Origin: Acidobacteriota bacterium
GTDB lineage: Bacteria > Acidobacteriota > Vicinamibacteria > Marinacidobacterales > Marinacidobacteraceae
DNA length: 64,000 nt
Direction: 5' to 3'
Assembly (NCBI GenBank): GCA_009840635.1
Contig: VXNL01000047.1
Coordinates: forward strand, 510-64,509
Below are positions 7,493-59,020 of this stretch, in pieces. Made by a program: the position numbers and the translations under genes. The notes under the pieces are model-generated. The model saw only the letters and a program-made list of their open reading frames with translations, was not told the DNA's origin and did not search any database. Positions within the stretch are counted from its first letter, which is position 1, and every line of letters starts with the position of its first letter.

Positions 7493-7521
7493 TTGACATC
7501 GTGATCAGAGTAATCCATAAA
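7493..7521 (+). promoter_or_regulatory. sigma70-like promoter: -35 TTGACA (7493-7498), 17-nt spacer, -10 CATAAA (7516-7521), in an AT-rich gap
   Basis: Read directly. It sits 30 nt upstream of the ATG at 7551, with an AGGAGA Shine-Dalgarno at about 7537-7542. The local AT-richness is unusual for this 70%-GC DNA. Confidence 0.4.
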
Positions 7522-7534
7522 ACAGACTACTCTG
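7506..7534 (+). promoter_or_regulatory. inverted repeat CAGAGTA-N15-TACTCTG overlapping the -10 region; candidate operator
   Basis: Perfect 7-bp arms at 7506-7512 and 7528-7534. A winged-helix regulator gene lies immediately downstream in the same putative operon. Confidence 0.35.
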
Positions 7535-7550
7535 ACAGGAGACATCCGAT

Positions 7551-8391: not shown

Positions 8392-8538
8392 TGCGGCGCC
8401 GTGCCGTCTGTAAGATTCGCGCGCGGCGAACGTAGCGAAGACACGTCCCTTTCCAGCGTTCCGCGTGGAGTCCCGGGCCCGGGCATCGTGCCGGGAACCT
8501 TTCCCTGGCGAGCGGCGTAGGCTCCCTGATCCAAGAAC

Positions 8539-9774: not shown

Positions 9775-9794
9775 CGGCGGGTGAACAGATTCAC

Positions 9795-11743: not shown

Positions 11744-11751
11744 GGGGAGTC

Positions 11752-12948: not shown

Positions 12949-12949
12949 G

Positions 12950-17460: not shown

Positions 17461-17550
17461 GCGGCGATTATCGCCCGAGCCTGGCGCTGGCGCTGATCGG
17501 CGCGCCCGGATTCACTAGCAGCGCTCCGTCACGTCCACGATGGCAGCGCC

Positions 17551-17640
17551 GGTCTGGAAGGCCGGCTTCAGCCGGCACAGCGGGCCGCAGGCCCGCGGAC
17601 GACGTGCCGTCGTCCGCCTTGGGCGACGCAGGTAGGGGAA
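17551..17640. repeat. REP/MITE family A copy; left-arm half only, no right TIR
   Basis: ggtctggaaggccggcttcagccggcacagcgggccgcaggcccgcgg... matches the left half of the 36641-36801 element, including the gccggc-ttca-gccggc hairpin. Confidence 0.5.
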
Positions 17641-36556: not shown

Positions 36557-36640
36557 TTGCCCGGGCGCAGGTGGGCTCGGACTCCATGGCGTGGGCGGGA
36601 GGGTCGCGGAGCCGCGGGTTTTGTTGCCGTGATGGCGCCG

Positions 36641-36801
36641 CCGGCTTGGAACGCCGGCTTCAGCCGGCACAGCGGCCCGCAGGGCCGCGGGCGGGTTCGT
36701 CGCTACCCCGGGTGCACAGCCGCGCCATCCCGGCGAATGAGGTCCGTCTCGCCGCCCGCCTTGGGCGGGCTGTGCCGGCTGAAGCCGGCGTTCCAAGCCG
36801 G
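36641..36801. mobile_element. MITE-like element, 161 bp, with perfect 33-bp terminal inverted repeats (family A)
   Basis: Left TIR 36641-36673 ccggcttggaacgccggcttcagccggcacagc. Right TIR 36769-36801 is its exact reverse complement. Inside are the palindromes gcggcccgcagggccgc and ccgcccgccttgggcggg. It carries no ORF and sits in the 397-nt gap upstream of nuoL. Confidence 0.65.
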
Positions 36802-36953
36802 CGGACCACCGTGCTGGGTCAAGTGACGCGTCCCTTTGCGGCGGCGCCGCGCGGGTCTCCGAAATGGCTTCCCTACGTTGACCTAAACGCCCCGATCCGG
36901 TACCTTCCGCGCGCCGTCCAACCCCGTATTTCAGGAGTGCTCAGTAGCCCGTT

Positions 36954-38978
<2,025 letters not shown>

Positions 38979-39028
38979 CCAGCCCGCATGAACACCGCGA
39001 CTAGCGCTGCCAGCTCCGGATAAGCCGA

Positions 39029-40618
39029 ATGTTCGAGAACAACCCCTTCAACTTCCCGATCCTGTCGCTGGTGGTCTTCTTCCCGGCGATCGCGGCGCTC
39101 TTCATCCTGTTCTTCGTCAAGAAGACCGATGAGGACCGGGTCCGCTGGCTCGCGAACGGCGCGGCGCTCATCGGATTCCTGATCTCCCTGCCGCTGTGGT
39201 TCGCGTTCGACGCGGCCGGGCCGCAGTTCCAGTTCGGAGAGCGCTACGAGTGGATCCCGAGCATCGGCGTCGAATACAACCTCGGCCTCGACGGAATCAG
39301 CCTGCTGCTGGTCCTCATGACCACGCTGCTCGGCTTCATCGCCATCCTGTCGTCGTGGAAGGCGGTCACCGAGCGCGTCAAGCAGTACTACGTCTTCCTG
39401 CTGTTGCTCCAGACGGGAATGCTCGGCGTCTTCGTGGCGCTCGACTTCTTCCTGTTCTACGTGTTCTGGGAAGTGATGCTGGTCCCGATGTACTTCCTTA
39501 TCGGGGTCTGGGGCGGCCCGAGGAAGCTTTACGCGGCCATCAAGTTCTTCCTCTACACGCTGGTGGGAAGCGTCCTGATGCTGCTCGGCATCCTGGCGCT
39601 CTACTTCGCCCACCATGGGGCGACCGGCGAATACACCTTCGACCTGCTCCGCCTCATGGAGACCTCCTACGCGTCGGGTCTCCAGTTCTGGGTGTTCCTC
39701 GCCTTCTTCATCGGGTTCGCGATCAAGGTCCCGATGTTCCCGTTCCACACTTGGCTTCCCGACGCCCACGTCGAGGCGCCCACCGCGGGTTCGGTCATCC
39801 TGGCCGGGGTGCTGCTGAAGATGGGGACCTACGGTTTCGTGCGGTTCTCGATTCCGCTCCTGCCCGAGGCGAGCCGCGAAGCGGTGTGGTGGGTCGCCAC
39901 CCTCGCGATCATCGGGATCATCTACGGAGCCCTCGTCGCTCTGGTCCAGAAGGACTGGAAGAGCCTCGTCGCCTACAGCTCGGTGAGCCACCTCGGCTTC
40001 GTGATGCTCGGCGTCTTCGCGCTGAACACCCTGGGTCTCGAGGGTGGCATCCTCCAGATGATCAACCACGGTCTCTCCACGGGAGGACTCTTCCTGCTCG
40101 TCGGCATCATGTACGAGCAGCGCCACACGCGGGACATCGCGGCCTACGGCGGGATCGCCAAGGTGGTGCCGAAGTACGCCGCGCTCTTCCTGATCATCGC
40201 GCTCGCCTCCATGGGTCTTCCGATGCTCAACGGCTTCATCGGCGAGTTCCTGATCCTGCAGGGCGTCTTCCAGGTGGACTGGGTGTATGCCGCGTTCGCC
40301 GTCTCGGGCATCGTGCTCGGCGCCGCCTATCTGCTGTGGCTCTACCAGCGGGTCATGTTCGGCAAGCTGGACAAGGAAGAGAACAAGACGCTCGCCGATG
40401 TGACCAGCCGCGAGAACGCCACCCTGGTCCCGATCGTCGCGCTCTGCATCTTCATCGGCGTCTATCCCAAGCCGTTCCTCGAGAAGCTCGCCGTTCCGGT
40501 GGCGGCCATCGTCGAGCGCGTCTCTCCCGAGAGCGCGCAGACCGCCGAGGCGCCGCCGATGCCGGCCGAGGTGGAGGAAGAGCTTCGGGGCGCCGCTCCC
40601 GTTCCGAGCGACGACTGA
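39029..40618 (+). CDS. nuoM: NADH-quinone oxidoreductase subunit M
   Basis: 529 aa with NuoM/ND4 conserved blocks ([40 protein letters not shown]). Confidence 0.9.
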
Positions 40619-40651: not shown

Positions 40652-40918
40652 ATGCCGCCGATGACCCCGGAGCCTCCGGTGGCGCCGCGTGCCCGGCTGC
40701 TGACCCTGCTGAGCCTCGGCTTTTCGGTGCCCATGGCGATCGTGATCGGCGGCGGGTCCGGCTGGCTGCTCGACCGCTGGCTCGGAACGGAGCCCTGGCT
40801 CTTCCTGGTCTTCCTGGCCTTCGGAATCGTGGCCGGGCTCAGGAACGTGGTTCGGGCCGCCTCCGCGGTGGCGGACAGCGACGCGCCGCCTGAGGATTCT
40901 GGGGGAGAGGGGTCATGA
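40652..40918 (+). CDS. AtpZ/AtpI-family small membrane protein (putative F0 assembly/accessory)
   Basis: 88 aa with two TM helices, immediately upstream of the atpI-like gene and atpB. Confidence 0.6.
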   Translation: MPPMTPEPPVAPRARLLTLLSLGFSVPMAIVIGGGSGWLLDRWLGTEPWLFLVFLAFGIVAGLRNVVRAASAVADSDAPPEDSGGEGS

Positions 40919-41364
40919 CGGATTCGGGGAGGCCGGCGGAAGCGAGCCGCGAAGAGCGGCTCACCCGGCGCGCGCTAGCCCTCGGAGCGGCCGCCGCGCT
41001 GATCGCACTTGCCTTCGGCCCCCGGATCGGGCTCTCGGTGCTGGGCGGGGCCACCATCTCCGTCCTCAACATCGTCGCGCTCCGCCGGGTGGCCGCCGGT
41101 CTGACCGCCGACCACTCCGCCCGGTCGGCCATCGTGCTGGCCGCGCTCACCGGGGTTCGTTATCTCTTGCTCGGGGGCGCGCTGGTTGCGATAATTGCCG
41201 TCTGGAACGCCGACGTGATCGGCGTCGTGTGCGGGTTGGGCGCGCCGAACCTGGCCGTCCTGCTGGAACTGCGAAACGGGGGCCTCCGGGGCCTTCGTAC
41301 ACCGCAGGCCTCTCCTCCCCCGGATGATCCGGAGGACAGGGAGAACCCCCCGCCAGGCGTCTGA
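40915..41364 (+). CDS. atpI: ATP synthase protein I-like membrane protein
   Basis: 149 aa, with an ATGA overlap onto the previous gene, four hydrophobic segments, and a position directly before atpB. Confidence 0.55.
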   Translation: MTDSGRPAEASREERLTRRALALGAAAALIALAFGPRIGLSVLGGATISVLNIVALRRVAAGLTADHSARSAIVLAALTGVRYLLLGGALVAIIAVWNADVIGVVCGLGAPNLAVLLELRNGGLRGLRTPQASPPPDDPEDRENPPPGV

Positions 41365-41387
41365 CCGCACGTACTCCCGGCCCGACC

Positions 41388-42077
41388 ATGGAAATCCACC
41401 ACTACTCAGCCTTCACCCTCTGGATCGAGGAGTGGTTCCACGTCCATCCGCCGGACCACGTCGTGATGGCGGTCTTCGTGGCGCTTCTCCTGTCCGGGTT
41501 CGCGATCTTTTTCCGCCGCCGGATTTCGGTGGAGAATCCCGGCCGGCTCCAACTGATCCTCGAGGCGCTCGTCGGGGGCTTGCTCTCGCTCCTGCGTGAG
41601 AACGTGGGTCCGAGGGGCCGGCGGTTCCTGGGCCTGGTGGGCACGCTCGCCCTCTTCATCTGGATCAGCAATCTGTGCGGGCTGGTGCCCTATCTCTCAT
41701 CCCCCACGGTGAGCATCAACATGCCCGTGGGATGCGCCATCGTCGCGTTCCTCTACTACAACTACCAGGGGATCCGGGCCCACGGAGCGAAGAAGTACTT
41801 CGCCCACTTCCTCGGGCCGAGCCCCTGGCTGGCGATCGTGATGCTGCCGGTCGAGATCATCAGCCATGTCAGCCGCATCCTCTCGCTTTCGGTCCGGCTC
41901 TTCGGAAACATTTTCGGCGAAGAGCTGGTCGTCATCGTGCTGGCGTTCCTGATCCCGTTCGTGGTGCCGCTCCCGATGATGGCCTTCGGCGTCTTCGGCA
42001 GCACGCTGCAGGCATTCGTTTTCACCATGCTCACTGTCATCTATCTCGGCGGCGCGGTCGCGGCCGAGGAACATTGA
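41388..42077 (+). CDS. atpB: F0F1 ATP synthase subunit a
   Basis: 229 aa with the conserved a-subunit arginine region LSLSVRLFGNIFGEEL. Confidence 0.9.
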   Translation: MEIHHYSAFTLWIEEWFHVHPPDHVVMAVFVALLLSGFAIFFRRRISVENPGRLQLILEALVGGLLSLLRENVGPRGRRFLGLVGTLALFIWISNLCGLVPYLSSPTVSINMPVGCAIVAFLYYNYQGIRAHGAKKYFAHFLGPSPWLAIVMLPVEIISHVSRILSLSVRLFGNIFGEELVVIVLAFLIPFVVPLPMMAFGVFGSTLQAFVFTMLTVIYLGGAVAAEEH

Positions 42078-42112
42078 TTCGGCCGCGTAATCAGTTCAAG
42101 GAGAAAAGAATC

Positions 42113-42436
42113 GTGTCCAAGAAGTTTCGGACGACCCTGCTGGCTGGCCTCGGCGTGCTCGCCGCGTCCCCGGCCTTCGCCCAAGGGGCCTGGGACCCGG
42201 TAGTCAGTCAGTGGGCGCTGATCTCGGCAGGTGGCGCGATCGCCATCGCCGCCGCCTTCGGCGCCACCGCGCAGGGACGCGCGGTGGTCGGCGCCTGCGA
42301 GAGCCTCGCCCGGAACCCCGGCGCCGCGCCGCAGATCCGCTTCTCGCTGCTTCTCGGTCTGGTGCTGATCGAGTCCCTCGTCATCTACGCCTTCGTCACC
42401 GCGCTCATCATCTTCTTCGTTCTCTGGAACGGCTGA
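42113..42436 (+). CDS. atpE: F0F1 ATP synthase subunit c, with an N-terminal signal-peptide-like extension
   Basis: GTG at 42113 with an AAGGAGAAAAG SD 8 nt upstream. The c-subunit hairpin GAIAIAAAFGATAQGRAVVGACESLARNPG...LLLGLVLIESLVIYAFVTALIIFFV is present. An extra N-terminal ~35 aa reads KKFRTTLLAGLGVLAASPAFAQGA. Confidence 0.88.
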   Translation: MSKKFRTTLLAGLGVLAASPAFAQGAWDPVVSQWALISAGGAIAIAAAFGATAQGRAVVGACESLARNPGAAPQIRFSLLLGLVLIESLVIYAFVTALIIFFVLWNG

Positions 42437-42479: not shown

Positions 42480-42670
42480 TTCCGACTCTGGGGGAACGCC
42501 GGTCTCCAGACCGGCAGAGCCGTTCGCGTCCGGCCGCCATGGATCTGGCGGTAGCCCAGATCCATGGCGACCGGCGCGTCGGCGAATTCGCACCCCCTCG
42601 ATCGCCTTCACCGCGACTACGGCTTGGAACGCCGGTCTCTAGACCGGCACGCGCGGCGCTTCGCGCCGCG
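42480..42670. repeat. array of REP-like palindromes (family A variants) in the atpE-mtnA intergenic gap
   Basis: Hairpins seen: ccggtctccagaccgg, ccatggatctggcggtagcccagatccatgg, ggcttggaacgccggtctctagaccggcac, gcggcgcttcgcgccgc. Confidence 0.45.
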
Positions 42671-42731: not shown

Positions 42732-43781
42732 ATGGTCCGCCCCTTCCGCTGGGACCCCGAGCGCAAGGTCCTCCACCTCCTGGACCAGCGCCGGCTCCCG
42801 GCCGAGGAGGTGTGGATCGAGCGCGCCGAAGCGCATGAGGTCGCGGACGCCATTCGGGACATGGTGGTCCGCGGGGCACCGGCCATCGGGATCGTCGCCG
42901 CCTACGCGGTGGTGCTGGGGTTCGCCCGTGACGCCGGAGACTCGCCTGCGGCTCGGTTCGAGGACCTGGCCGCTGCACTGCTGAATACCCGGCCAACCGC
43001 CGTCAACCTGCGCGCCGCCATCGTGCGCATGCGCACCCGGTTGGAAACGCTATCCGCCGCTTCGGCAGCGGGACGGGTTCGCGGCCTGGAGGCGGAGGCG
43101 GACCGCATCGCCGCCGAGGACCTCGAAGCCAACCGCCGCCTGGGCACGCTCGGGGCCAGCCTGCTGCGGCCGGCGGGGAAGAGGGCCCGCGTCCTCACCC
43201 ACTGCAACGCGGGGAGCCTCGCCACCTCCGGATACGGGACCGCTCTCGGGATCGTCCGGGCGCTGGCCGAGTCGGGCCGCGAGGTCGAGGTGTTCGCTCC
43301 CGAAACCCGCCCGTATCTGCAGGGCGCCCGGCTCACCGCGTGGGAACTGATGGCGGACGGAATCCCGGTCACCCTCGTCACCGACGGAATGGTCGGTTCC
43401 CTGCTCGCTGGCGGAGACATGGATGCGGTGGTCGTGGGGGCCGACCGGATCGCGGCGAACGGGGATTCGGCCAACAAGATCGGCACTTACCAGGCCGCGG
43501 TCCTCGCGAAGGAGCACGGTGTGCCGTTCCTGGTGGCCGCGCCCTTCTCGAGCGTGGATCTCGAGACGCCGACCGGTGCGGAGATCCCCATCGAGGAGCG
43601 CCGCCCCGAGGAGATCGTCGAGATCGTCGGAAGGCGCATCGCGCCGGAGGGCGTGTCCGTCTGGAATCCGGCCTTCGACGTGACTCCGGCCGGCTACATC
43701 ACTGCAATCGTGACCGAGCGTGGGATTGCGCACCCGCCTTTTGCGGCTTCGCTGGCGCGTCTGGGCAGGACCCGGGAATAA
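42732..43781 (+). CDS. mtnA: S-methyl-5-thioribose-1-phosphate isomerase (eIF-2B-like family)
   Basis: 349 aa. Matches MtnA conserved blocks: RGAPAIG, THCNAGSLATSGYGTALG, GADRIAANGDSANKIGTY. Confidence 0.88.
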   Translation: MVRPFRWDPERKVLHLLDQRRLPAEEVWIERAEAHEVADAIRDMVVRGAPAIGIVAAYAVVLGFARDAGDSPAARFEDLAAALLNTRPTAVNLRAAIVRMRTRLETLSAASAAGRVRGLEAEADRIAAEDLEANRRLGTLGASLLRPAGKRARVLTHCNAGSLATSGYGTALGIVRALAESGREVEVFAPETRPYLQGARLTAWELMADGIPVTLVTDGMVGSLLAGGDMDAVVVGADRIAANGDSANKIGTYQAAVLAKEHGVPFLVAAPFSSVDLETPTGAEIPIEERRPEEIVEIVGRRIAPEGVSVWNPAFDVTPAGYITAIVTERGIAHPPFAASLARLGRTRE

Positions 43782-43790
43782 CCTAACGGC

Positions 43791-44855
43791 ATGCTGATCC
43801 TGGGGATCGAGACCTCCTGCGACGAGACCTCCGCGGCGGTGGTCGAAGACGGCCGGCGCATCCTCTCGAACGTCGTCTCGTCCCAGGTCGCCCAGCACGC
43901 GCAGTTCGGAGGGGTGGTGCCCGAGATCGCGTCCCGGCAGCACCTCCTCAACCTGTCGCCGGTGGTGCGGCAGGCGCTCACTGAGGCCGAGGTCGGCCTC
44001 GATGACATCGAGGCGGTCGCGGTCACGAACGGCCCCGGCCTCATCGGGGCCCTGCTGGCGGGTGTCTCCTTCGCCAAGGCGTTCGCGTTCGCGCGCGGGA
44101 TTCCGCTGGTGGGGGTGGATCACATCGAAGGGCATATCCGCGCGTGCTACCTCGAAGGCGGCGAGGTTCCCCACCCGGCGCTCGCGCTCGTGGTCTCCGG
44201 GGGGCACACGAACCTCTTCCTGCTCGAAGGCGAGAGTTCCTACCGGCTGCTCGGCAAGACCCGCGATGACGCCGCGGGCGAGGCCTACGACAAGCTCGCC
44301 AAGCGACTCGGTCTCGGGTATCCGGGCGGTCCGATCCTCGACCGGTTGGCGCAGCGGGGCGATGCGAACCGCCACCTCTTCTCGCTCCCGCACTTTTCGG
44401 ACGGAGCCAAGCTGGACTTCAGTTTCTCGGGCCTCAAGACCCAGGTCCTCCGGCTCATCGAGCACGAGAGCATCGAGCCGCTGGCCGACGGCGACGATCC
44501 TTTCGCCCGCGAAGACCTCCGCGATCTGGCCGCCAGCTTCCAGTCGGCGGTCGTCCGCGCCCTGCGCCGCTCGGTGGACCGGGCGCTTCGCATGTTGGAA
44601 GCCAGCGCCGTGCTGTTGACGGGCGGGGTCGCCGCCAACTCGGCTCTGCGGGCCAACTTCCAGGCTCTCGGCGAGAAACGCGGCCTGCCCGTCTTCTATC
44701 CCAGCGTCGCCCTCTCCACCGACAACGCCGCCATGATCGCGGCGGCCGGCCACCTGGCGCTTCTCCGCGGCGAAGTGGCGGGTCCGGACCTGACGGCGGA
44801 CACCGAACTGCGGCTGGGCGAGACCGGACCGCGCCGGTCCCGGCGTCACCGCTGA
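43791..44855 (+). CDS. tsaD: tRNA N6-adenosine threonylcarbamoyltransferase
   Basis: 354 aa with Kae1/TsaD motifs: GIETSCDETS, GVDHIEGH, VVSGGHT, GGVAANSALR. Confidence 0.9.
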   Translation: MLILGIETSCDETSAAVVEDGRRILSNVVSSQVAQHAQFGGVVPEIASRQHLLNLSPVVRQALTEAEVGLDDIEAVAVTNGPGLIGALLAGVSFAKAFAFARGIPLVGVDHIEGHIRACYLEGGEVPHPALALVVSGGHTNLFLLEGESSYRLLGKTRDDAAGEAYDKLAKRLGLGYPGGPILDRLAQRGDANRHLFSLPHFSDGAKLDFSFSGLKTQVLRLIEHESIEPLADGDDPFAREDLRDLAASFQSAVVRALRRSVDRALRMLEASAVLLTGGVAANSALRANFQALGEKRGLPVFYPSVALSTDNAAMIAAAGHLALLRGEVAGPDLTADTELRLGETGPRRSRRHR

Positions 44856-44863
44856 ACTCCGGA

Positions 44864-46429
44864 ATGTCCGAGGCGCGGCCCGACCCCGGCCGGGTCACTG
44901 CCGTCTACCGTGTCCAGCCGGGCTCCGCCACGCCCGAGGATCGGGCCCGCATGATCGCGGTCGAGCAGACCGTCGAGGTCCCGGAAGCACTCATACCGCC
45001 GCACATCGAGAAGGAGATCGTCGGGCGGGTCGAATCCGTAACGCCCGACCCCGAGGTCCCGGGAGCGAGCCGCGTCACGATCAGCTACGGGGCGGAACTT
45101 GCCGCGAACCTCTTCGATTTACTGGCGGTCGCGATCGGCAACGCGCCGATGTACGGCGGGGTGCGGCTCGTGGGACTCGAGCCGCCGCGGGCGCTACTCG
45201 AGTCTCTCCCCGGCCCCAATCACGGCGTCGAGGGTGTGCGGCGGATGTGCGGCGTCCTGGGACGGCCGCTGCTGGCCACCGCGCTCAAACCGCAGGGCTC
45301 GACCGTGTCCGAGCTGGCTTCCATGGGGGAGGCGTTCGCCCGCGGCGGCGGCGACCTGGTCAAGGACGACAACAACATCACCGATGACTTCGAGGGTTTT
45401 CGAGACCGGGTCACGGCCTGCGCGGAGGCCGTGGAACGCGGCAACCAGACCACCGGCCGCCGGTGCCTCTACGTCCCGCACGCCGGCGCCCGCGCCGATG
45501 AGCTCGAACGGTACGTCGAGTTCGTCGCCGAGATCGGGCTTCCCGGAGTGCTGATCTGTCCGATGATCACCGGACTCGACACGATGCGCGCCCTGGCAGA
45601 GCGCTATCCGCTCATCTTCATGGCCCATCCGTCCCTGACCGGGGTCTATACCCACGCCCCTCAGAACGGGGTGGCCCACGGCGTCCTCTTCGGGACCCTG
45701 TTCCGGCTGGCTGGCGCCGACATCTCGGTGTTTCCGGACGCCCGCGGCCGGTTCCAGTTCGCCAAGGCTCAGTGCGAAGCGATCACCGAGCGGCTCCGCG
45801 AGCCGCTCGGCGCGCTCCGTCCGGCGTGGCCGGCCCCAACCGGCGGGATCGGACCCGCGGATGTCGCGCGGGTCTGCGGTATCTACGGTCCCGACACCGT
45901 GTTACTGATCGGCGGTGCCCTGCTCGGCCATCCGGACGGAATCGAGGCGGGAACCCGCGAGATCCTCGACCGGATTCGCTCGGTCCACCCGGAGGTTTCG
46001 ATAGAGCCGTCGGAGCCGCCGCGGCTTTCGCTCCCCGAACCGCGGCGGCTCGCCTTCCGCCGGGACTGGAACTGGGAGGGCCGGGACAGTTCCCCATACA
46101 AGGACGCCGGGGACCTCACCTTCCGGGGCGTGCGCCGGGTGGAGCTCGTCGGGAAGTTCGGGGAGCGCACCCGCTGCGACCTGCGCTACTTCGAAGTGGA
46201 ACCCGGCGGTCACACGAGCTTCGAAAAACACCTCCACACCCACGTCGTGATCGGCGCCCGCGGGGAGGGCGTCCTGCTGCTCGCAGACCGGCGGATGCCA
46301 CTCCGTCACCTCGACGTCGCCTGCGTGGGTCCGCTGGAGGCCCACCAGTTGCGGAACGAGTCCGACGAGCCGTTCGGCTTCTTCTGCGTGGTGGACCACG
46401 ACCGCGACCGCCCGTTGCGGGCCGAGTAA
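44864..46429 (+). CDS. RuBisCO-like protein (form IV RLP) fused to a C-terminal cupin domain
   Basis: 521 aa. Residues ~1-395 are RuBisCO large-subunit-like, including the lysine-region motif GGDLVKDDNNITDD and CPMITGLDTMRALAE. Residues ~400-521 carry cupin-like motifs (FEKHLHTHVVIGARGEG and GPLEAHQLRNE). It lies directly downstream of mtnA-tsaD. Confidence 0.8.
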   Translation: MSEARPDPGRVTAVYRVQPGSATPEDRARMIAVEQTVEVPEALIPPHIEKEIVGRVESVTPDPEVPGASRVTISYGAELAANLFDLLAVAIGNAPMYGGVRLVGLEPPRALLESLPGPNHGVEGVRRMCGVLGRPLLATALKPQGSTVSELASMGEAFARGGGDLVKDDNNITDDFEGFRDRVTACAEAVERGNQTTGRRCLYVPHAGARADELERYVEFVAEIGLPGVLICPMITGLDTMRALAERYPLIFMAHPSLTGVYTHAPQNGVAHGVLFGTLFRLAGADISVFPDARGRFQFAKAQCEAITERLREPLGALRPAWPAPTGGIGPADVARVCGIYGPDTVLLIGGALLGHPDGIEAGTREILDRIRSVHPEVSIEPSEPPRLSLPEPRRLAFRRDWNWEGRDSSPYKDAGDLTFRGVRRVELVGKFGERTRCDLRYFEVEPGGHTSFEKHLHTHVVIGARGEGVLLLADRRMPLRHLDVACVGPLEAHQLRNESDEPFGFFCVVDHDRDRPLRAE

Positions 46430-46542: not shown

Positions 46543-47139
46543 CTAGCGCCGGCTGAGTAGATGTTGAACCTGTTCGGGAGAGAGTTGCTTTTCGCTTCCC
46601 AGCACCTGGGTGACGACCGCAATTTCGGCGGAGCGTTCCAGGGTCTCCATCCGGTCGAAAGCGTTCTGCAGGTCGCGGCCCATGGTGAGGGCGCCGTGGT
46701 TGGCGAGCAGGATGGCGTTCGAGTCGGCCGCGGCCTCGCCGACGGCGGCCGCCAGATCGGACGACGACGGCGCGTGGTATCCGACAGTGACGATGTGACC
46801 GAGGTCCACCAGCACCTCGGCGAGGGAATGGCGGCAGAGATCCACGCCGGCGGCGGCAAAGCCGGTGGCACACACCGGATGGGCGTGGACGATCGCCTGG
46901 ATGTCCTGCCGGACGTCATAGATGGCGAGGTGCACCTTGATCTCGCTGCTCATCCGGTGACGGCCGCCAATCTGGCGTCCCGCGAGGTCGCAGCGGACGA
47001 GGTCGTCTGGCGTCAGTTCGCCCTTCCGGAAGCCGCTCGGGGTACAGAGGAGTTCGTCGCCTCCGATCCGGACGCTCGCATTGCCTTCGCGGGCGACAAC
47101 GAGTCGGGCCGCGGCCAGCTTCCGTGTCACGCCGCACAT
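46543..47139 (-). CDS. class II aldolase/adducin-family protein (fuculose-phosphate aldolase / MtnB-like)
   Basis: Start at the internal ATG (CAT at 47137-47139). Motifs: AREGNASVRIGGDELLCTPSG and the Zn-binding pair AIVHAHP. The upstream 75 aa of the ORF are low-complexity. A GTG about 21 nt further upstream is also possible. Confidence 0.75.
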   Translation of the reverse strand: MCGVTRKLAAARLVVAREGNASVRIGGDELLCTPSGFRKGELTPDDLVRCDLAGRQIGGRHRMSSEIKVHLAIYDVRQDIQAIVHAHPVCATGFAAAGVDLCRHSLAEVLVDLGHIVTVGYHAPSSSDLAAAVGEAAADSNAILLANHGALTMGRDLQNAFDRMETLERSAEIAVVTQVLGSEKQLSPEQVQHLLSRR

Positions 47140-47308
47140 CTCATGCGCCAGGGCGTCGACCTGCGGACCCTGCCAGTCGCGTTCCGGTCGCGGGGCGGTA
47201 CCGTCGTCCAGTGGGGACGAGACGCCCAGGGGATTCCCGCTCAAGATTTTCAGCGTATCACCCGGGGGCTCCGTCCGAGCGTCCCGGTTTCTCGCGCTCG
47301 GCGCGGCG

Positions 47309-50300
47309 TTACCTTCCGGTGGGGCTGATTTCCTCGGCAAGCTCCCGGAACCGGCAGAAGGCATTGGCCAGCCGCATCTGGTGCGGCGTCTTGCAGTCGG
47401 GAAAAAAGAGTTCCGGGCTCGCGACCACCACTGCGAGGCAGCGGGCGCGCGAGGTGGCCACGTTGAGGCGGTTCAGCGAGTAGAGGAAGTCCATCCCTCG
47501 CGGGGCGGCGTCCGGCGTCGAGGTGGCGAGCGAGTAGAAGACCACCGGGGCTTCCTGTCCCTGGAACTTGTCCACGGTTCCCACCCGAGCCCGTCCGTCG
47601 AGGATCCCGGCGAGGCGGTCCACCTGGGCGTTGTAGGGGGCGACGATCAGGATGTCCTCCGGGGTGATCCGCCGGGCCACTCCGCCGGCGTCCGTCCAGG
47701 AAGCGGCATCGAGCAGCCCGGCGACCAGCGACGCGATGCGTTCGGCCTCTTCCGGCGACTCGCGCTGGTTGCCGTCGTGCTCGACGGGGACGAAACGGAG
47801 TCCGGCGCCAGGGAGCGGACCTTCGGTGATCGCCTGCCGCTCCAGTCCGGGCCGCGCCCCGAGTCGGCCGTCGTAGAAGAGTTCCGAGGTGAACCGGCCG
47901 ATCTCGGGGTGCATCCGCCAGGTGTGGTCGAGGAAGAGGCCGCGTTCCGGTGGAATCGTCTTCTCCTCACCGAGCAGGTGCCCGAGCGCCGAGGCGGACG
48001 ATCCCTCCGGATGGATCCCCTGGGTGACCTGATCGAGTTGGCGCGGATCGCCCAGCAACACGAGGCTCTCGGCGGCCGGCGCGGAGGTGAGCGCGCCCGC
48101 GAGGGAGAACTGTCCGGCCTCGTCCACCACCAGTACGTCCACCGCGTCCTGCATGTCCTCCCGCGCCCAGACCCAGGTCGTGCCCGCGATCAGCCGCACA
48201 TCGGGGTCTCTGACGGCGTCGACCGCCTTTCCGGAACCCGCCTTCCGTTCGATGCGGGGATCGGCGCAGCCCGCGTGCGAGACGATCTGAACTCCCTGGA
48301 ACGTGACGCCCTCCTCATCGGCGGCGGCGCAGACCTGGTCGAGCAGGTTGGTGATGACCTGGTGGCTCTGCGCCGTCACCCCCACCCGCCGGTCGGCCGC
48401 CAGGAGCGCGGTGATGACGCGGGCGCCGAGGTAGGTCTTGCCGCTTCCCGGCGGCCCCTGCACCGGCAGCACCTCCCGGTCGAGATCGAGCGCGAGGCGC
48501 CTGGCCGCGTGAACCAGGTCTTCCCCGGGCTGTAGCAGGGGTGTGCCGTTGCCGCCGTTTCGCGGCGGAACCCGCCGGAGCAGATCGAACGCGGCGCGCC
48601 GCGGGTGGCCGTCCGGGAATCCACCCTCGGCAACCAGCTCGCCGAGACGGAACAGGGAATCGCGCATCGTGCGGGTGGGCAGAACGTCCACGGGGACAAG
48701 CGCCCCTGGATGGGGCTGCTGCACCTTCTGGCGGCTGCGCTTCAGGATCAGCGCGTCCTCGGTCATCCCGAAGACCTCGCCCGGCGACGCCCCCGTCGCG
48801 GGGTCGCGGACGCTCGTGCCGACGTCGATTCCATGGTCCTGGGGCGGAAACCGGTAGCGGTGGAGTACGGACTGCTTCTCGGGACCGATCTCCGCCTCGA
48901 ACGTCAGACCACCCAGCGTCGTCCGTTCCTCGAAGAGTTGCTCGGCATCCAGCCCGCAGAGGTGGAAGAACTCCCACCATGCCGACTTGTCCTCCCGCCG
49001 GTGGTAGTCGAGGAGGTATCTCAGGAGTTGCCGAGCCTCGGATTCGTCCGGTGGACAGTCGGACACCAGGCGCGTTCCAAGGTGTTCGACCCGCGCCGCG
49101 GCCTCGCCCTGCTCGTGTTCCTTTTCCGGCGCGATCTCGACGGTTCGGCGCCGCCGCGGGCCGATCTCGCTGGTGAGTTCCCGGCGGAGGTCCTCGAGCC
49201 AGCCGTGGAGCGCCAGCGTGGAAAGGCAATCCTCGCGGTTGTAACGCCGGACGACCTCGAGGTCGCCCGGTTCCGCCCGGCCGCCCGAGTCCAGTGCGGC
49301 ATCCGTCCGGGCACGCGCCCGGATGGACTCGACGAGGTCCTGTTTCCGGGTGAACCCGTAAAACCGTTCCATCTCCTTGATGGAGTAGCTCTCCACCGAC
49401 GCAACCAGCCCCTGCCGGACCACCTGGAGGAGGTCCACGAACACCTGGTGGCGAAGGAGCACGTCCATCGCGTCCTCGCGGCTCGCGTAGCGGCTCATGA
49501 GGCGCTTCAGCGCCCCTGTCTCGTAGCCCCCGTAGTGGTAGATGTGGAGACCTCCGAACTGTTCCCGGCGTTCGGCCACCAGGTCCATGAAGGACTCGAA
49601 GACCTCGCGCTCTCCGCCGCGGTCGAAAGCCCAGCGGTCGTCATAGTCACCGTCCCGATCCACGAAGCCGAACAGGTACTCGAGCCCGCCGTCCGTGGTC
49701 GGCCGGGAACTCTCGATGTCGAAGAAGAGATCACCTTCGGAGGGTTCGGGGAGCGCCAGCAGACCGCGGTCCTCCTCCGGCGGTGCGGTCAGATCCCGAA
49801 AGGGCCGGCCCGACGCGCGCTCGGTGAGCTGCGCCTTCGCTTGGCGATGGATGCGCTTCAGTGAAGCTGGTTGGACGCCGTCGAGCGGCGGGTCGAGGGG
49901 CAGGGCGACCCCGGCCAGAGCCGCCAGGGTCGTGATGCCGCGGTCCTCCAGGCGCTGGCGCTGGTGCCGGGAGGCTCCGGCAACGAGCGAGAGATGGTCA
50001 TCCGTCCGTCGCCGATCGCGGCACACCTGGTTCCAGTCGCAGCGGGGACACAGGTCCACGGGCTCCGGATAGGTCGGCCCCGGGTCGGCGCAATGGCCCT
50101 CGAACTGGCGCCTCAGCGCGCGCTCGAACGCCGCGAAGTCCGCAACGCGAAAAGGCTCGAGCTCGCCGGCGCCGCCGAGCGCGAGGTGCATTTCGACTGG
50201 CGCCGTTCCCTGCACACGCTCCAGCAGCCACGAATACACCGCGATCTGGAGGACGGCGTCCGCCTTCGCGACCGTGGCGAGCTTGGCGTCCACCACCTCG

Positions 50301-50689
50301 TAGGACCAGTCACCGAGCGCGCTCGGGCGCGGGGCCCGAACCAGGAAATCGGGGTAGCCGCCCCACTTCCCACGGCCGAGCCGCCCCTGGTGGATCACCT
50401 CCACGCCGCGCCGCATAGCGTCGAGGGTCCGCTCGTTTCGTTCCGCGAAACCCTCGGACGCGCCGATCTCCTCGACCGTGAACCCCTCCATCCGGTATCG
50501 CTCGAGCATTCGGGCCTCGTGCTCCCGCCCGGCCTCGGCCAGCGCGTCGCGGCGGGGGTCTTCGAAGATGAGTGGTGGGGACCTCTCGCCGAGCTTGACC
50601 CCGCGGTCGAGGCTCGTCAGGTGGCGGCAGGCGAGGAACCGGCTGAGATCGGTGGGAGCGAAGAAGAGTTTGCCGTCCCTCTGGCGCAT
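47309..50689 (-). CDS. RecB-like (TM0106/Cas4-type PD-(D/E)xK, Cys-cluster) nuclease fused to an SF1B Upf1/Dna2-like helicase; Nhi-like architecture
   Basis: 1126 aa. The N-terminal ~450 aa have DAKL, QIAVY and a C..CPRCDWNQVC Cys cluster. The C-terminal ~500 aa have Walker A GPPGSGKT, VVDEAGQ, LLGDPRQL, RMHPEIGRFTSELFY, DKFQGQE and NVATSRAR. Confidence 0.85.
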   Translation of the reverse strand: MRQRDGKLFFAPTDLSRFLACRHLTSLDRGVKLGERSPPLIFEDPRRDALAEAGREHEARMLERYRMEGFTVEEIGASEGFAERNERTLDAMRRGVEVIHQGRLGRGKWGGYPDFLVRAPRPSALGDWSYEVVDAKLATVAKADAVLQIAVYSWLLERVQGTAPVEMHLALGGAGELEPFRVADFAAFERALRRQFEGHCADPGPTYPEPVDLCPRCDWNQVCRDRRRTDDHLSLVAGASRHQRQRLEDRGITTLAALAGVALPLDPPLDGVQPASLKRIHRQAKAQLTERASGRPFRDLTAPPEEDRGLLALPEPSEGDLFFDIESSRPTTDGGLEYLFGFVDRDGDYDDRWAFDRGGEREVFESFMDLVAERREQFGGLHIYHYGGYETGALKRLMSRYASREDAMDVLLRHQVFVDLLQVVRQGLVASVESYSIKEMERFYGFTRKQDLVESIRARARTDAALDSGGRAEPGDLEVVRRYNREDCLSTLALHGWLEDLRRELTSEIGPRRRRTVEIAPEKEHEQGEAAARVEHLGTRLVSDCPPDESEARQLLRYLLDYHRREDKSAWWEFFHLCGLDAEQLFEERTTLGGLTFEAEIGPEKQSVLHRYRFPPQDHGIDVGTSVRDPATGASPGEVFGMTEDALILKRSRQKVQQPHPGALVPVDVLPTRTMRDSLFRLGELVAEGGFPDGHPRRAAFDLLRRVPPRNGGNGTPLLQPGEDLVHAARRLALDLDREVLPVQGPPGSGKTYLGARVITALLAADRRVGVTAQSHQVITNLLDQVCAAADEEGVTFQGVQIVSHAGCADPRIERKAGSGKAVDAVRDPDVRLIAGTTWVWAREDMQDAVDVLVVDEAGQFSLAGALTSAPAAESLVLLGDPRQLDQVTQGIHPEGSSASALGHLLGEEKTIPPERGLFLDHTWRMHPEIGRFTSELFYDGRLGARPGLERQAITEGPLPGAGLRFVPVEHDGNQRESPEEAERIASLVAGLLDAASWTDAGGVARRITPEDILIVAPYNAQVDRLAGILDGRARVGTVDKFQGQEAPVVFYSLATSTPDAAPRGMDFLYSLNRLNVATSRARCLAVVVASPELFFPDCKTPHQMRLANAFCRFRELAEEISPTGR

Positions 50690-50893
50690 CGGCGGGCGCA
50701 GTGTACGGATCGGCCGGCGAGCCCGCCCGGTCGGCGCAAACTTCAGGAGCGGTCCGCGCCCGGAGGCTCCCAGAGCCGGCGGATCGGCTCTGCGTACAGA
50801 CGCTCACCAAACCGGGGCGGTCGTCTCCCCGGCCTAAAGGACCATCCCGTCTGCGCGCTCCACAACGAGATCCACCACCACGCCGTCCTGGAC

Positions 50894-50956
50894 GTCGGCA
50901 GATTGCAAGTGTCGGGTGCGGCTGAATGAAAAAGTTACGGTCGGCAGACTGAAAGT
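50894..50956. repeat. two imperfect 17-bp direct repeats (GTCGGCAGAtTGcAAGT and GTCGGCAGAcTGaAAGT) in an AT-richer island
   Basis: Read at 50894-50910 and 50940-50956. They sit in the 409-nt gap between the nuclease-helicase start and the ParE locus. Local AT content is clearly above the window average. Confidence 0.35.
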
Positions 50957-51098
50957 TGACGGCCAAGTGAGCCGCAAGCGAAGTCAATGGAAGGCGACAC
51001 CGCCCTGAACACCTCCCCATGCCTGAGTGCCGGACCCTCAGACCGGCTCCACGGCTAGCGGCCGGCACGCCACCCACCCCGTGCCGAGGCGGTCGAGG

Positions 51099-51392
51099 CT
51101 ACTGCCGGCCAGCCCAGTAGGTGGGTCTTCGTTTCGTGTGCATGGTGGCGAGGACCCGAAGGTGGTCGCCGGTCACCCTGTAGAGGACGGCATACGGAAA
51201 ACCCCCGGCGAGTTGCCGACGGATCTCTTCTCGTACGACTCGGCCCGCGTCCGGAAACGCGCGAACGGACTCCGCGCACGTCTCGACCGCGGCCAGGAAC
51301 AGCGATCCCAACCCGGCACTTCGGGTCTCGTACTAGTGCGCCGCCTCCGCGAGTTCGAGCTCGGCCAGACGGTGAAACGAGAGTTCTCGCAA
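51099..51392 (-). pseudogene. parE: ParE/RelE-family toxin disrupted by an in-frame amber stop (TAG at about 51333-51335)
   Basis: The ORF track gives only 70 aa (51099..51311), matching a ParE C-terminus (FPYAVLYRVTGDHLRVLATMH). The same frame continues upstream as LRELSFHRLAELELAEAAH*YETRSAG, a typical ParE N-terminus, broken by TAG where a conserved Tyr is expected. The antitoxin ORF lies in the same frame directly upstream. Confidence 0.65.
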
Positions 51393-51608
51393 CTAGGCGA
51401 GTTGTTGCCGTAACTCTTTGAAGACCTGCTCTGCCGAGCGGTCCGTCGTTTCCGGTTCCAAGTCGCGTCTGGCGGCCTGTTCCGCCCAGATTTGCTCGTT
51501 CTGCTCGACCGTGAGTTCGTCCAGACTCCGGAGGAGCTTTCCGGCCAATTGTGCGCGTGACCTCGGGCTGAGCTTGAGGGCCTCCGCCACGAGGTGGTCG
51601 AGTTGCAT
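51393..51608 (-). CDS. type II antitoxin, putative addiction-module component (ParD-like / TIGR02574-like)
   Basis: 71 aa ending 81 nt upstream of the ParE remnant, with sequence LSPRSRAQLAGKLLRSLDE... Confidence 0.6.
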   Translation of the reverse strand: MQLDHLVAEALKLSPRSRAQLAGKLLRSLDELTVEQNEQIWAEQAARRDLEPETTDRSAEQVFKELRQQLA

Positions 51609-54105: not shown

Positions 54106-54510
54106 CTACTGGCGGAAGGGATCGAGCGTCGGGACGCCGAACGGCTCGAAGTCCCGGACGTTCCGGGTCACGACCGTCAGGCGGTGCACGTTTGCCGTGG
54201 CGGCAATCAGCGCGTCGGTGATGAGCGTGTCGGACTTGCGATGCATGAGGCGCGCCCATTCCCGGAACACCGGACCGTCCTGGGCCAGAACCTGGTACGT
54301 GGCGAGCACGCCGTCGAGCCAAGCCTCCAGGTCCCCCGCCTTGGCGGGGTCCTGTTCTCGCGTGATCTCGATGCCGGCCTGAATCTCACCGATCGTGACG
54401 CCGGACAGGTGGAGCCTCTCCGGTGAAACGTCCTGAATCCAGCCCAGGACCGCCGGGTGAGGCCGTGGGCGCCGTAACTCCGAAACGACGTTCGTGTCCA
54501 GCAGATACAC
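54106..54510 (-). CDS. vapC: type II toxin VapC (PIN-domain ribonuclease)
   Basis: 134 aa with an MYLLDTNVVSE PIN N-terminus and the conserved D...E...D...D acidic residues. Its start is 5 nt after the antitoxin stop. Confidence 0.85.
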   Translation of the reverse strand: MYLLDTNVVSELRRPRPHPAVLGWIQDVSPERLHLSGVTIGEIQAGIEITREQDPAKAGDLEAWLDGVLATYQVLAQDGPVFREWARLMHRKSDTLITDALIAATANVHRLTVVTRNVRDFEPFGVPTLDPFRQ

Positions 54511-54514
54511 CGGG

Positions 54515-54775
54515 TTACTCGAACCGGGGCGGCGGACGGCGGGCGAGTGGCCTGCGTTCCGGCGCGAGGGACTCGATGCGGGGCGCCGGCGCGAGGAGCA
54601 GCTCCTTCAAGTTCGGCTTCGTCGTTCGCTGCAGGCCTTCCCACTGCTCCATCGGCACAACCACCGCTGTCTCAACGCCTCTTCGAGTCACGACCTGGGG
54701 GCCCTCCGCCACGGCTTTTTCGAGCAGTTCGCTGAACCGCGCCTTGGCCGTCTGGACCTGCCACCGATTGCTCAT
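54515..54775 (-). CDS. type II antitoxin, Phd/YefM family (VapB partner)
   Basis: Internal Met start with sequence MSNRWQVQTAKARFSELLEKAVAEGPQVVTRRG. The 20 upstream codons of the ORF look non-coding. Confidence 0.75.
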   Translation of the reverse strand: MSNRWQVQTAKARFSELLEKAVAEGPQVVTRRGVETAVVVPMEQWEGLQRTTKPNLKELLLAPAPRIESLAPERRPLARRPPPRFE

Positions 54776-54868
54776 CGAATCCTCCGTGCGTATCGGACTA
54801 GACAGAAGACTAGTCCGATAAGGGCTTGAGCGCAAGCTCCGGTCCCCCGGAACGTCAGGGCCGCCGCC

Positions 54869-58884: not shown

Positions 58885-58963
58885 GGGGCGTCAACCCTCG
58901 GCCGATCTTCCGCGAGGGCGCACGAGGGCGCGCGGCGGCGCGCCGCCCGCGGCGCTGCGCGCT

Positions 58964-59020
58964 GCTGTGCCGGCTGAAGCCGGCCCAGTTCTCCCGGTGG
59001 GGGCTCCAAGCCGTTTCCGC
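58964..59020. repeat. REP family A copy, right-arm orientation
   Basis: gctgtgccggctgaagccggcccagttctcccggtgggggctccaagccgtttccgcc equals the right TIR of the 36641-36801 element plus the tcccggtggggg motif. Confidence 0.45.

Follow-up and report, generated by a model that had tools for sequence, protein, structure and literature searches.

A TM0106-family protein from an acidobacterial lineage that joins two nuclease folds to an SF1B helicase

The stretch of Acidobacteriota DNA analyzed here (64,000 nucleotides, referred to as the window) carries, at 47309..50689 on the (-) strand, a real gene; its product is a large enzyme that combines a motor for unwinding DNA with two different domains for cutting it. 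The gene is a new member of the known, uncharacterized family in which a TM0106 (TIGR03491/COG2251) region is joined to an SF1B helicase. Our best overall explanation, to which we give a probability of about 0.5, is that this resident gene encodes a single-chain machine acting on DNA ends, with a guard role resembling that of RecBCD.

Domain architecture of the gene product

The open reading frame has an ATG start and consists of 1126 codons plus a stop codon. It is the only frame at the locus with coding-type GC3 (0.86), confirming the large single ORF proposed in the initial annotation. The AlphaFold model of the 1126-residue protein has a pLDDT of 94.6 and a pTM of 0.92. We rejected a pseudogene or chance ORF on the grounds that the residues of all three active sites are conserved and that model confidence is very high. 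Around the gene no sigma-70-like promoter was seen, terminators did not exceed chance expectation, and no Rfam family was matched. The gene and its domains are as follows.

47309..50689, (-) strand: whole gene, TM0106-family nuclease/exonuclease fused to an SF1B helicase
50000..50689, (-) strand: iron-staple PD-(D/E)xK nuclease (Cas4/AddB/Dna2 type), residues 1-230; TIGR03491 match, weak PDDEXK_1 and Cas4 matches
49775..49999, (-) strand: helical linker, residues 231-305; secondary structure
49175..49774, (-) strand: RNase H-fold DEDDy 3'-5' exonuclease of the PolB-proofreading type, residues 306-505
48500..49174, (-) strand: helical stalk, beta-barrel (Upf1/Dna2-type 1B/1C accessory domains) and linker, residues 506-730; secondary structure, inferred boundaries
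47312..48499, (-) strand: SF1B helicase core (RecA1 + RecA2), residues 731-1126; AAA_11/AAA_12/AAA_30

The key residues of the N-terminal nuclease are a cysteine cluster of the pattern C21 + C214-x2-C217-x5-C223, together with D114, E131-x2-D134-x-K136 and Q148-x3-Y152. Among 117 homologues the four cysteines, Q148 and Y152 are invariant, and D114, D134 and K136 are conserved in at least 90%; on alignment, the catalytic residues of the nuclease are present and conserved. The linker that follows may contain a helix-hairpin-helix-like segment (LSLVAGASRHQRQRLEDRGITTLAALAG, residues 233-260), picked out by eye from the sequence. Residues 321-498 match PF13482 (RNase H-like/DEDDy exonuclease; Pfam E 7e-17), with the active-site residues D324-x-E326, D419 and Y483-x3-D487, and the nearest likeness of this domain is to DNA-polymerase proofreading domains.

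The helicase core contains Walker A GPPGSGKT (745-752), DEAGQ (856-860), motif III LLGDPRQL (878-885), QGQE (1043-1046) and TSRAR (1079-1083), all of which are invariant among homologues. In Pfam it matches AAA_11/AAA_12 (E 1.8e-25), and PDDEXK_1 is weakly matched by the protein. Every helicase motif quoted in the initial annotation was found, as was its cysteine cluster, and its reading of a nuclease joined to a complete SF1B helicase is supported by the iron-staple PD-(D/E)xK domain and the full motif set. Both parts of that layout are present, but a third enzymatic part, the PolB-like 3'-5' exonuclease (PF13482), had been overlooked. The protein has three folds with intact, conserved catalytic residues in a Dna2-like domain order.

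The helicase core matched Ighmbp2, Upf1, Sen1 and Dna2 by sequence in the PDB (E 2e-7 for Dna2), and Foldseek alignments to Ighmbp2/Upf1 spanned about 660-680 columns, exceeding the RecA core. Over the whole length the best structural match was eukaryotic Dna2 (Foldseek E 3.5e-25, about 1240 aligned columns), so that the comparison with Dna2 proposed in the initial annotation returned the top whole-length fold match. Identity to Dna2 is 13-14%, and the TM-score of about 0.36-0.38 indicates that the domains are arranged differently.

These likenesses bear on whether the substrate could be RNA. A role in RNA decay or in conflict directed at RNA, with a Upf1-like RNA helicase working alongside an exoribonuclease of the RNase D/T type, would fit the closest helicase structures, since Ighmbp2, Upf1 and Sen1 are RNA/DNA helicases, and many DEDD exonucleases are RNases. 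There is also a precedent in the McrBC-linked CoCoNuT systems, whose UPF1-like helicases are predicted to target RNA (PMC11090510). Against this, the exonuclease lies nearest to DNA-polymerase proofreading domains, nucleases of the iron-staple class, namely AddB, Dna2, Cas4 and Bad, act specifically on DNA (PMC7430649), and the whole-length best match is Dna2. We regard an RNA-targeting enzyme as very improbable.

Family spread and genomic setting

The protein scored 252.1 bits against TIGR03491 (TM0106, NCBIfam; cut-off 97.45, E 1.1e-74), residues 13-498 aligning with profile positions 4-462 of 462. Both features of TIGR03491/COG2251 members, the Cas4-like four-Cys PD-(D/E)xK domain and the PF13482 RNase H-like domain, are present, and members of the same 90% cluster carry the NCBI name TM0106 family. 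The 150 representatives of 50%-identity clusters among the matches listed all have E <= 1e-207, nearly all with end-to-end alignments. The family comprises thousands of sequence clusters in most bacterial phyla; it is found in mycobacteria, Rhodococcus, one Pelagibacteraceae genome and on rhizobial plasmids, and 59 full-length plasmid copies are annotated as TM0106 family. Rv1251c is a possible member from M. tuberculosis. The distribution is sporadic and the family tree is phylum-scrambled overall, with the Acidobacteriota members forming a taxonomically coherent clade.

The same family was catalogued in 2014 as COG2251/PF13482 family F.13 in a survey of the RNase H-like superfamily (Majorek et al. 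2014, PMC3985635). There, F.13 combines PF13482 with DUF83 (PD-(D/E)XK) and "frequently" with tandem AAA domains, clusters with PolB exonuclease domains and is "presumably" a 3'-5' exonuclease; it is a catalogue entry without function, context analysis or experiments (PMC3985635). We found no experiments on any TM0106-SF1B member in the literature, PADLOC 2.0 has no full-length model for the family, and the NCBIfam label (June 2026) is still "putative nuclease."

In the acidobacterial lineage the gene occupies a stable site. All five relatives examined (69-82% identity) share the backbone OPT ... gene ... RLP-TsaD-MtnA-ATP synthase, and the divergence of the gene (77%, versus 71-94% for the backbone) is like that of its housekeeping neighbors. 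A metagenome scan anchored on the neighboring RLP gene yielded a single close relative carrying the gene (L092). Within this lineage the locus is conserved and syntenic, which counts in part against the defense reading of the initial annotation, although the gene is not universally conserved. Variation around it in the lineage is confined to small toxin-antitoxin modules, two of which are found in the window.

51099..51608, (-) strand: ParE-type toxin pseudogene interrupted by an in-frame TAG, plus a small antitoxin-like ORF upstream of it; both lie in the variable slot separating the gene from the OPT transporter
54106..54835, (-) strand: intact Phd/YefM antitoxin (54515-54835) and PIN/VapC toxin (54106-54510)

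The ParE remnant (51099-51311 plus upstream) matches ParE_toxin at profile positions 28-88 of 89 (E 2.4e-5), with a weak antitoxin match at 51393-51608 (Unstab_antitox, E 8.5e-5); in relatives the OPT-side slot holds Uma2 or AAA_14/DUF4143 instead. The decayed ParE/antitoxin locus of the initial annotation is therefore real, and its VapBC locus corresponds to the intact Phd/YefM-PIN pair (PIN E 1.1e-14, PhdYeFM_antitox E 3.7e-15). The gap described as AT-rich does have a lower GC content, but only mildly so (0.66-0.67 versus 0.69). REP-like palindromic repeats do exist, at 17.5, 36.6-36.8, 42.5-42.65 and 58.9 kb of the window; being scattered, they do not bracket the gene. No PADLOC defense system lies within about 17 kb of the gene, there is no tRNA or integrase nearby, and the gene shows no GC or compositional anomaly. 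With synteny in five relatives and backbone-like divergence, the defense-island signature is weak. The acidobacterial copy is a long-resident, vertically inherited, stand-alone gene at a stable chromosomal site, not a mobile defense island, and the copy in the window is an ordinary resident of the TM0106 family.

Outside this lineage the family is often on plasmids or beside WYL regulators, and operons repeatedly pair it with McrBC-like, Shango or DrmD/TmtA-like genes. Examples are an operon of TM0106, McrB-like and McrC genes in Leisingera, one of DrmD-like, TmtA-like and TM0106 genes in Ensifer, and the Shango genes with TM0106 in Erythrobacter. SbcCD-like genes lie beside the family gene in L005 and L007, the closest relatives with a name, and on a Sphingobium plasmid; RmuC adjoins the family gene in four loci. 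The family has no universal partner gene. Its neighbors matched PADLOC models (103 and 138 families). Control neighborhoods anchored on an unrelated gene matched 167 models, including generic helicase/ATPase matches, and raw counts were therefore rejected; only the identity and strength of matches were kept. Enrichment relative to the control anchor is modest. Matches labeled BrxHI/BrxD proved to be the Shango proteins SngC and SngB. Co-localization with defense genes thus holds at the family level, with many members on plasmids or in defense-type operons, so a defense-type role for the window's copy is still plausible.

Proposed mechanism and cellular role

The most likely substrate of the single polypeptide is free-ended DNA, which it would process or destroy. 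The Upf1/Dna2-type SF1B motor would translocate 5' to 3' on single-stranded DNA, and the N-terminal Fe-S iron-staple nuclease would cut the 5'-tailed strand fed to the motor; Dna2 and Bad work in this way. The complementary strand, with its 3' end, may be digested by the PolB-like DEDDy exonuclease inserted in the chain. A single polypeptide could then degrade a DNA end on both strands, a task for which RecBCD and AddAB use several subunits. The polarity, the choice of DNA as substrate, the way the activities are coupled and the assignment of one strand to each nuclease are our inferences. If the mechanism is correct, the protein would be the first bacterial enzyme known to unite, in a single chain, a 5' nuclease of the Dna2 type, a 3'-5' exonuclease of the polymerase type and a 5'-3' motor. 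It would thereby offer a compact alternative to RecBCD and AddAB.

The most likely cellular role, though at slightly under even odds, is to guard the cell, as RecBCD does, against DNA that is foreign or has free ends, which is defense in a broad sense; DNA-break repair is a close second. Synteny, backbone-like divergence, the lack of a defense system within about 17 kb, the lack of a compositional anomaly, the modest PADLOC enrichment and the lack of a universal partner gene count against defense, and the SbcCD-like and RmuC neighbors fit repair equally well.

As a housekeeping repair or replication enzyme, the protein would be a bacterial Dna2/AddAB analogue, damage-induced and without a dedicated immune role, with the resection of double-strand breaks or the trimming of flaps and stalled forks as its task. 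Consistent with this are the stable gene order and the backbone-like divergence seen in the window's lineage, the coherent Acidobacteriota clade, the absence of defense genes, tRNA and integrase nearby, the SbcCD-like neighbors (L005, L007, Sphingobium plasmid) and RmuC in four loci, the presence of the family in a Pelagibacteraceae genome and the best structural match to Dna2. In addition, WYL regulators as a class include damage-responsive types, PafBC among them. However, a core repair factor would not usually be distributed sporadically, have a phylum-scrambled tree or be carried so often on plasmids. The operons in which the gene is tightly linked to McrBC-like, Shango and DrmD/TmtA-like genes also count against this account. 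We consider a purely housekeeping function less likely than the guard role, but a close rival to it.

The broad guard role can also be taken further. The TM0106-SF1B family as a whole may be a widespread, unlisted anti-plasmid/anti-phage effector, a "mini-RecBCD" made of one protein, with two unrelated nucleases that shred invading DNA ends on both strands; we put this forward tentatively. Such an effector would act alone, as in the window, or as the degradative arm of McrBC-, Shango- or DISARM/Tiamat-like modules under WYL-type control. The operons with McrBC-like, Shango and DrmD/TmtA-like genes are testable candidates for new defense-system variants.

Comparison with known systems

The initial annotation took the protein for an Nhi-family anti-phage nuclease-helicase in an accessory defense/toxin-antitoxin island. 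Nhi (nuclease-helicase immunity), reportedly described in Staphylococcus by Bari and colleagues in 2022, is a single protein combining a nuclease with an SF1 helicase, and its anti-phage activity is reportedly triggered via phage SSB or replication intermediates. The general logic is shared, variable toxin-antitoxin modules flank the gene on both sides, and some TM0106-SF1B members have a defense-island or mobile setting. At E <= 0.1, however, PADLOC matched only MkoA, MkoC, DpdJ, PDC-S37 and Cas4, with no Nhi match from a library whose Nhi model is unconfirmed; the MkoA, MkoC and DpdJ matches (Mokosh and Dpd models) cover the helicase core only. The best whole-length match is Dna2, the family is TM0106/COG2251, the DEDDy domain is extra, and the window contains no recognized defense system. 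Moreover, Nhi sits in a mobile SCCmec-adjacent cassette (PMC11470126), whereas the window's gene is syntenic and vertically inherited. The protein cannot be shown to belong to the Nhi family, and this reading is improbable.

Several other candidates were rejected. CRISPR-associated Cas4 scored 18.7 bits (TIGR00372; cut-off 65), and the window has no CRISPR-like repeat array. The suggested comparison with HamB and AddB found no Hachiman HamB model among the PADLOC matches and a domain order reversed relative to AddB, with only the nuclease class shared. AddB has a helicase-like N terminus and a C-terminal nuclease that is the prototype iron-staple domain. The BRIGADE "DNA2-like fusion" belongs to halophilic archaea, and no link to the TM0106-SF1B family was established.

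As in Dna2 and Bad, a four-Cys RecB-family nuclease with motifs I-III and QxxxY lies N-terminal to a complete SF1B core. Dna2 (PDB 5EAN/5EAX) shares the N-terminal 4Fe-4S iron-staple PD-(D/E)xK nuclease, the stalk/barrel and the 5'-3' SF1B helicase in one chain. Unlike the window's protein it has no DEDDy exonuclease domain, and it is essential and universal in eukaryotes, whereas the TM0106-SF1B family is sporadic in bacteria.

[quoted passage not shown] 2020, PMC7430649). Compared by description only, Bad is likewise three-part with similar spacing (motif III D150 versus D134 here, Walker A K815 versus K751), but its central domain has no detectable homology, whereas here it matches PF13482 (E 7e-17). 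Bad also adjoins a Type III-like methyltransferase in Geobacillus, and none is near the window's gene. The central domain and the missing methyltransferase neighbor are indirect evidence against identity with Bad. The "second class" mentioned for Mycobacteria and Rhodococcus (PMC7430649) comes from taxa that also contain the TM0106-SF1B family.

In the proposed mechanism the protein resembles RecBCD, AddAB and AdnAB, where nucleases linked to a helicase motor break down both strands starting at a DNA end. Those enzymes are multi-subunit, with SF1A motors (plus the SF1B RecD) and PD-(D/E)xK nucleases only, whereas the window's protein places a single SF1B motor and two nuclease folds of unrelated type in one chain. 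The likeness is one of function, homology being limited to the nuclease domain. RecBCD itself has dual roles, in repair and in the destruction of phage DNA.

Domain architecture and active-site conservation

The target is a single ATG-started open reading frame of 1126 codons with a third-position GC content of 0.86, which is of the coding type and similar to that of neighbouring genes. All motifs quoted in the initial annotation were located in its translation; the PF13482 domain had gone unmentioned.

47309-50689, minus strand: target gene, TM0106-family nuclease and SF1B helicase, 1126 aa
Residues 13-498: TIGR03491 'TM0106 family RecB-like putative nuclease' (NCBIfam, 252 bits against a cut-off of 97)
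C21 and C214-x2-C217-x5-C223: Cys cluster
Residues 110-224: PDDEXK_1 (weak Pfam match)
Residues 321-498: PF13482 'RNase_H_2' (Pfam, E 7e-17)
Residues 734-1091: SF1B core (Pfam AAA_12, E 1.8e-25, with AAA_11 and AAA_30)
Residues 745-752: GPPGSGKT
Residues 856-860: DEAGQ
Residues 878-885: LLGDPRQL
Residues 1043-1046: QGQE
Residues 1079-1083: TSRAR

Alignments of 28, 32 and 117 full-length homologues, with identities as low as 37%, showed no variation at the four cysteines, Q148, or Y152. The nuclease catalytic residues, the absence of which had been raised as a possibility, are present: the PD-(D/E)xK site (D114, D134, and K136) is kept in at least 90% of the aligned homologues. The same holds for D324, E326, D419, Y483, and D487, which form a DEDDy signature (DxE ... 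D ... Yx3D), and the helicase motifs are kept throughout. Given this conservation, the protein carries three enzymatic modules that are apparently active.

An AlphaFold model built from 117 homologues was very confident (pLDDT 94.6, pTM 0.92). Its top whole-length match in the PDB was Dna2 (5EAN; E 3.5e-25, ~1240 columns, TM ~0.37), followed by Ighmbp2, Upf1, and Sen1, which cover the C-terminal part and extend beyond the RecA core. The firmest part of our interpretation is that the protein is a motor-nuclease like Dna2 and Bad (the bacterial Dna2-like helicase-nuclease of Geobacillus) with an added polymerase-type 3'-5' exonuclease. The most economical use of such an arrangement would be the degradation or resection of both strands of a DNA end by one polypeptide; a role directed at RNA is considered highly improbable. 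Beyond the folds and conserved residues established here, the polarity, substrate, and coupling of the activities would be those expected from Dna2, Bad, and the PolB exonucleases.

The locus and its syntenic relatives

The neighbours of the target are housekeeping or metabolic genes, encoding Mrp/Nuo-type antiporter subunits, an ATP synthase I/a/c cluster, MtnA, TsaD, a RuBisCO-like protein fused to cupin, a class II aldolase, an OPT transporter, a DCC1/HTTM protein, a sodium:solute symporter, and DHDPS. The same backbone surrounds the gene in the related loci L001 (77% protein identity), L002/L003 (71%), and L087 (69%) and on the metagenome contig L092 (~82%). Between the window and L001 the backbone proteins are 71-94% identical and the target 77%. 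Two relatives at 63-64% identity carry the gene at a different locus, conserved between the two. On L092 (14998-18359) the orthologue aligns in two pieces (residues 1-162 and 167-1121) 11 nt apart, which suggests a frameshift, due either to a pseudogene or to an assembly error.

The small modules flanking the gene differ between genomes. In the relatives they are Uma2, AAA_14/DUF4143, MNT/HepT, HipBA, and PIN/FitA; their equivalents in the window are a ParE pseudogene, an ORF with a weak antitoxin match, and a Phd/YefM-PIN pair with both genes intact. The ParE-type gene contains one in-frame TAG and is therefore a recent pseudogene. The aldolase, the true start of which is probably internal to the ORF, is missing from this position in the syntenic relatives, where MNT/HepT or AAA_14/DUF4143 is found instead.

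51099-51400, minus strand: ParE-type toxin, one in-frame TAG (…LAELELAEAAH*YETRSAGLG…)
51393-51608: antitoxin-like small ORF upstream of the ParE-type toxin, intact, weak match
46543-47364, minus strand: class II aldolase (MtnB-like), just downstream of the target (Aldolase_II E 2e-44)
17534-17618, 36626-36804, 42493-42649, 58927-58985: REP-like GC-rich palindromic intergenic repeats, core GGAACGCCGGCTTCAGCCGGCACAGCGG…

The initial annotation had described the gene as Nhi-like (nuclease-helicase immunity) and placed it in a defence island; neither description is supported at this locus. The target has no GC anomaly (0.694 versus 0.688 for the high-GC window), and no tRNA, integrase, or Rfam element was found beside it. 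A scan of the 27 genes within ~17 kb against PADLOC, a library of defence-system profiles, gave only three single matches, each to one component of a multi-gene system: mad3 (E 1.7e-25), AriA (9e-9), and mad8 (2e-8). Those to mad3 and mad8 are read as generic because they were also seen among ATPases and among control neighbours, obtained with the same pipeline anchored on an unrelated gene. The REP-like repeats occur throughout the window in both orientations, sometimes paired as inverted copies. The supposed defence-island signature therefore comes down to a stably inherited gene set within a hotspot of small toxin-antitoxin modules. Membership of the Nhi family is very unlikely.

Several other features were observed. 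The intergenic stretch 50880-51000, ~200-300 bp upstream of the target start, has locally lower GC content and contains direct repeats that match imperfectly (AAAGTTACGG / AAAGTTGACGG); it may serve the target as promoter or operator, and a simple scan of it found no sigma-70 consensus. The aldolase, followed by MtnA, TsaD, and RuBisCO-like/cupin genes (42732-46429, plus strand), resembles a methionine-salvage-type cluster. In L087 (14991-17633) TsaD and RuBisCO-like/cupin are called as one 880-aa product, either because the genes are fused or through an artefact of gene calling or a frameshift. L092 (8079-8831) encodes a 250-aa protein with PIN as its only Pfam domain and a PADLOC match to 'type II methyl-directed restriction enzyme' (E 4e-48); its counterpart lies between MtnA and TsaD in L001-L003 and L087, has a FitA-like antitoxin partner in the relatives, and is absent from the window. 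Mrp/Nuo-type antiporter-like subunits (36954-40618) directly precede an ATP synthase set (40652-42430) that starts with 'ATPase_gene1' and AtpI, followed by the a and c subunits, a layout that recalls N-type (Na+) ATPase operons. Within a coding region (21583-22342), three diverged direct repeats of 67 nt encode motifs of the FFDYDNDGWLD type, as is typical of FG-GAP/VCBS repeat proteins.

Distribution and neighbourhoods of the family

Searched exhaustively, a set of 1.84 billion cluster representatives yielded 23,291 matches at E <= 0.001, of which 2,910 reached E <= 1e-30. Among the best 150 matches, all had E <= 1e-207 and nearly all were collinear across the whole 1,100-1,200 residues. When species-representative genomes were scanned, full-length copies turned up in Acidobacteriota, Chloroflexota, Alpha-, Beta- and Gammaproteobacteria, Bacteroidota, Actinomycetota (including Mycobacterium, Mycolicibacterium, and Amycolatopsis), Verrucomicrobiota, Planctomycetota, Thermotogota, Myxococcota, and one Pelagibacteraceae genome. 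NCBI gives the name 'TM0106 family RecB-like putative nuclease' to members of the 90% cluster that holds the window protein. The corresponding COG2251 (PF13482 plus DUF83, 'frequently' with tandem AAA domains) was catalogued by Majorek et al. (2014; PMC3985635), who group it with PolB exonucleases and regard it as 'presumably' a 3'-5' exonuclease. The window protein is thus a member of a catalogued and very common family, the annotation of which can be sharpened. A literature search found no experimental work on the TM0106-helicase family, and the interest lies in its unexplored biology as a whole rather than in the window copy.

Across 80 diverse family loci there was no universal neighbouring family. 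The commonest neighbour was an HTH-WYL-WCX regulator, adjacent in six loci from five phyla and mostly divergently transcribed; McrB-like plus McrC, RmuC, and NERD-UvrD each occurred in 4 of the 80. Translated searches (tblastn) found 59 full-length plasmid copies, with 26 of 69 matching plasmids predicted to be conjugative, and no match in phage records. The annotated plasmid contexts are clearly of conflict type. They and the Erythrobacter case are as follows.

Leisingera plasmid: WYL and HEPN divergent from hypothetical-TM0106-AAA (McrB-like)-McrC
Ensifer adhaerens plasmid pCTYH.Ch1_3 (L091), 2113-12366: tight four-gene operon adjoining repABC, encoding a 184-aa hypothetical protein, DrmD-like SNF2 helicase (E 3e-103), TmtA-like protein (E 6.5e-51), and TM0106-helicase
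Qipengyuania plasmid: Abi, 3'-5' exonuclease, DUF4011 (Hhe-type)
Phenylobacterium plasmid: Multiubiquitin-E2-E1 cluster directly upstream
Sphingobium plasmid (L174): WYL, HEPN, DUF3883, SbcCD-like pair (11304-15040)
Erythrobacter sp. AP23 (L017), 6511-13384: Shango SngB (E 2e-179), SngC (E 3e-270), then TM0106-helicase

The Ensifer cluster resembles a composite defence operon of a kind not described before. In Erythrobacter the TM0106-helicase starts 15 bp past SngC and may be the fourth gene of a Shango variant. SbcD/SbcC-like genes (Metallophos plus SMC-type ATPase) adjoin target homologues in L005 (4304-8702) and L007 (6332-9637), the two Vicinamibacterales-type relatives nearest to the clade of the window protein, and in L174, where the pair directly follows the homologue and is flanked by two WYL regulators. 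Among neighbours within two genes, PADLOC gave strong singletons to HmaC, JetD, type IV restriction enzymes, SoFic (twice), E2, Hhe, and seven WYL proteins. This enrichment is suggestive rather than decisive, because the control set also matched many models, including generic helicases.

A distance tree placed the window protein in a coherent Acidobacteriota clade, with phyla scrambled in the remaining family. A separate subfamily, ~37-40% identical to the window protein, held 5 of 6 plasmid copies, all four McrBC-linked loci, and 5 of 6 WYL-linked loci; the Ensifer plasmid and Erythrobacter Shango cases fell within the window's own half.

Cellular role and comparison with Bad

At the family level, plasmid carriage, placement in defence operons, association with WYL regulators, and horizontal transfer lean towards conflict with mobile DNA. 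We tentatively favour a defence-type 'guardian' role for the window protein, with a probability of about 0.45. Evidence at the window locus (a syntenic, vertically inherited gene with no defence genes around it, and SbcCD beside the closest named relatives) leans towards resident genome maintenance; a purely repair role is somewhat less probable than the guardian role. As RecBCD illustrates, defence and repair need not be exclusive.

The characterised enzyme nearest to the window protein is Bad, to which we liken it from the published description (PMC7430649). In Bad, an unexplained central domain separates an iron-staple nuclease from an SF1B helicase; the enzyme has an Fe-S cluster and a 5'-3' motor and prefers 5' flaps, and its role is not established (PMC7430649). 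A Type III-like methyltransferase adjoins the Bad gene, and the study refers to a 'second class' from Mycobacteria and Rhodococcus (PMC7430649).
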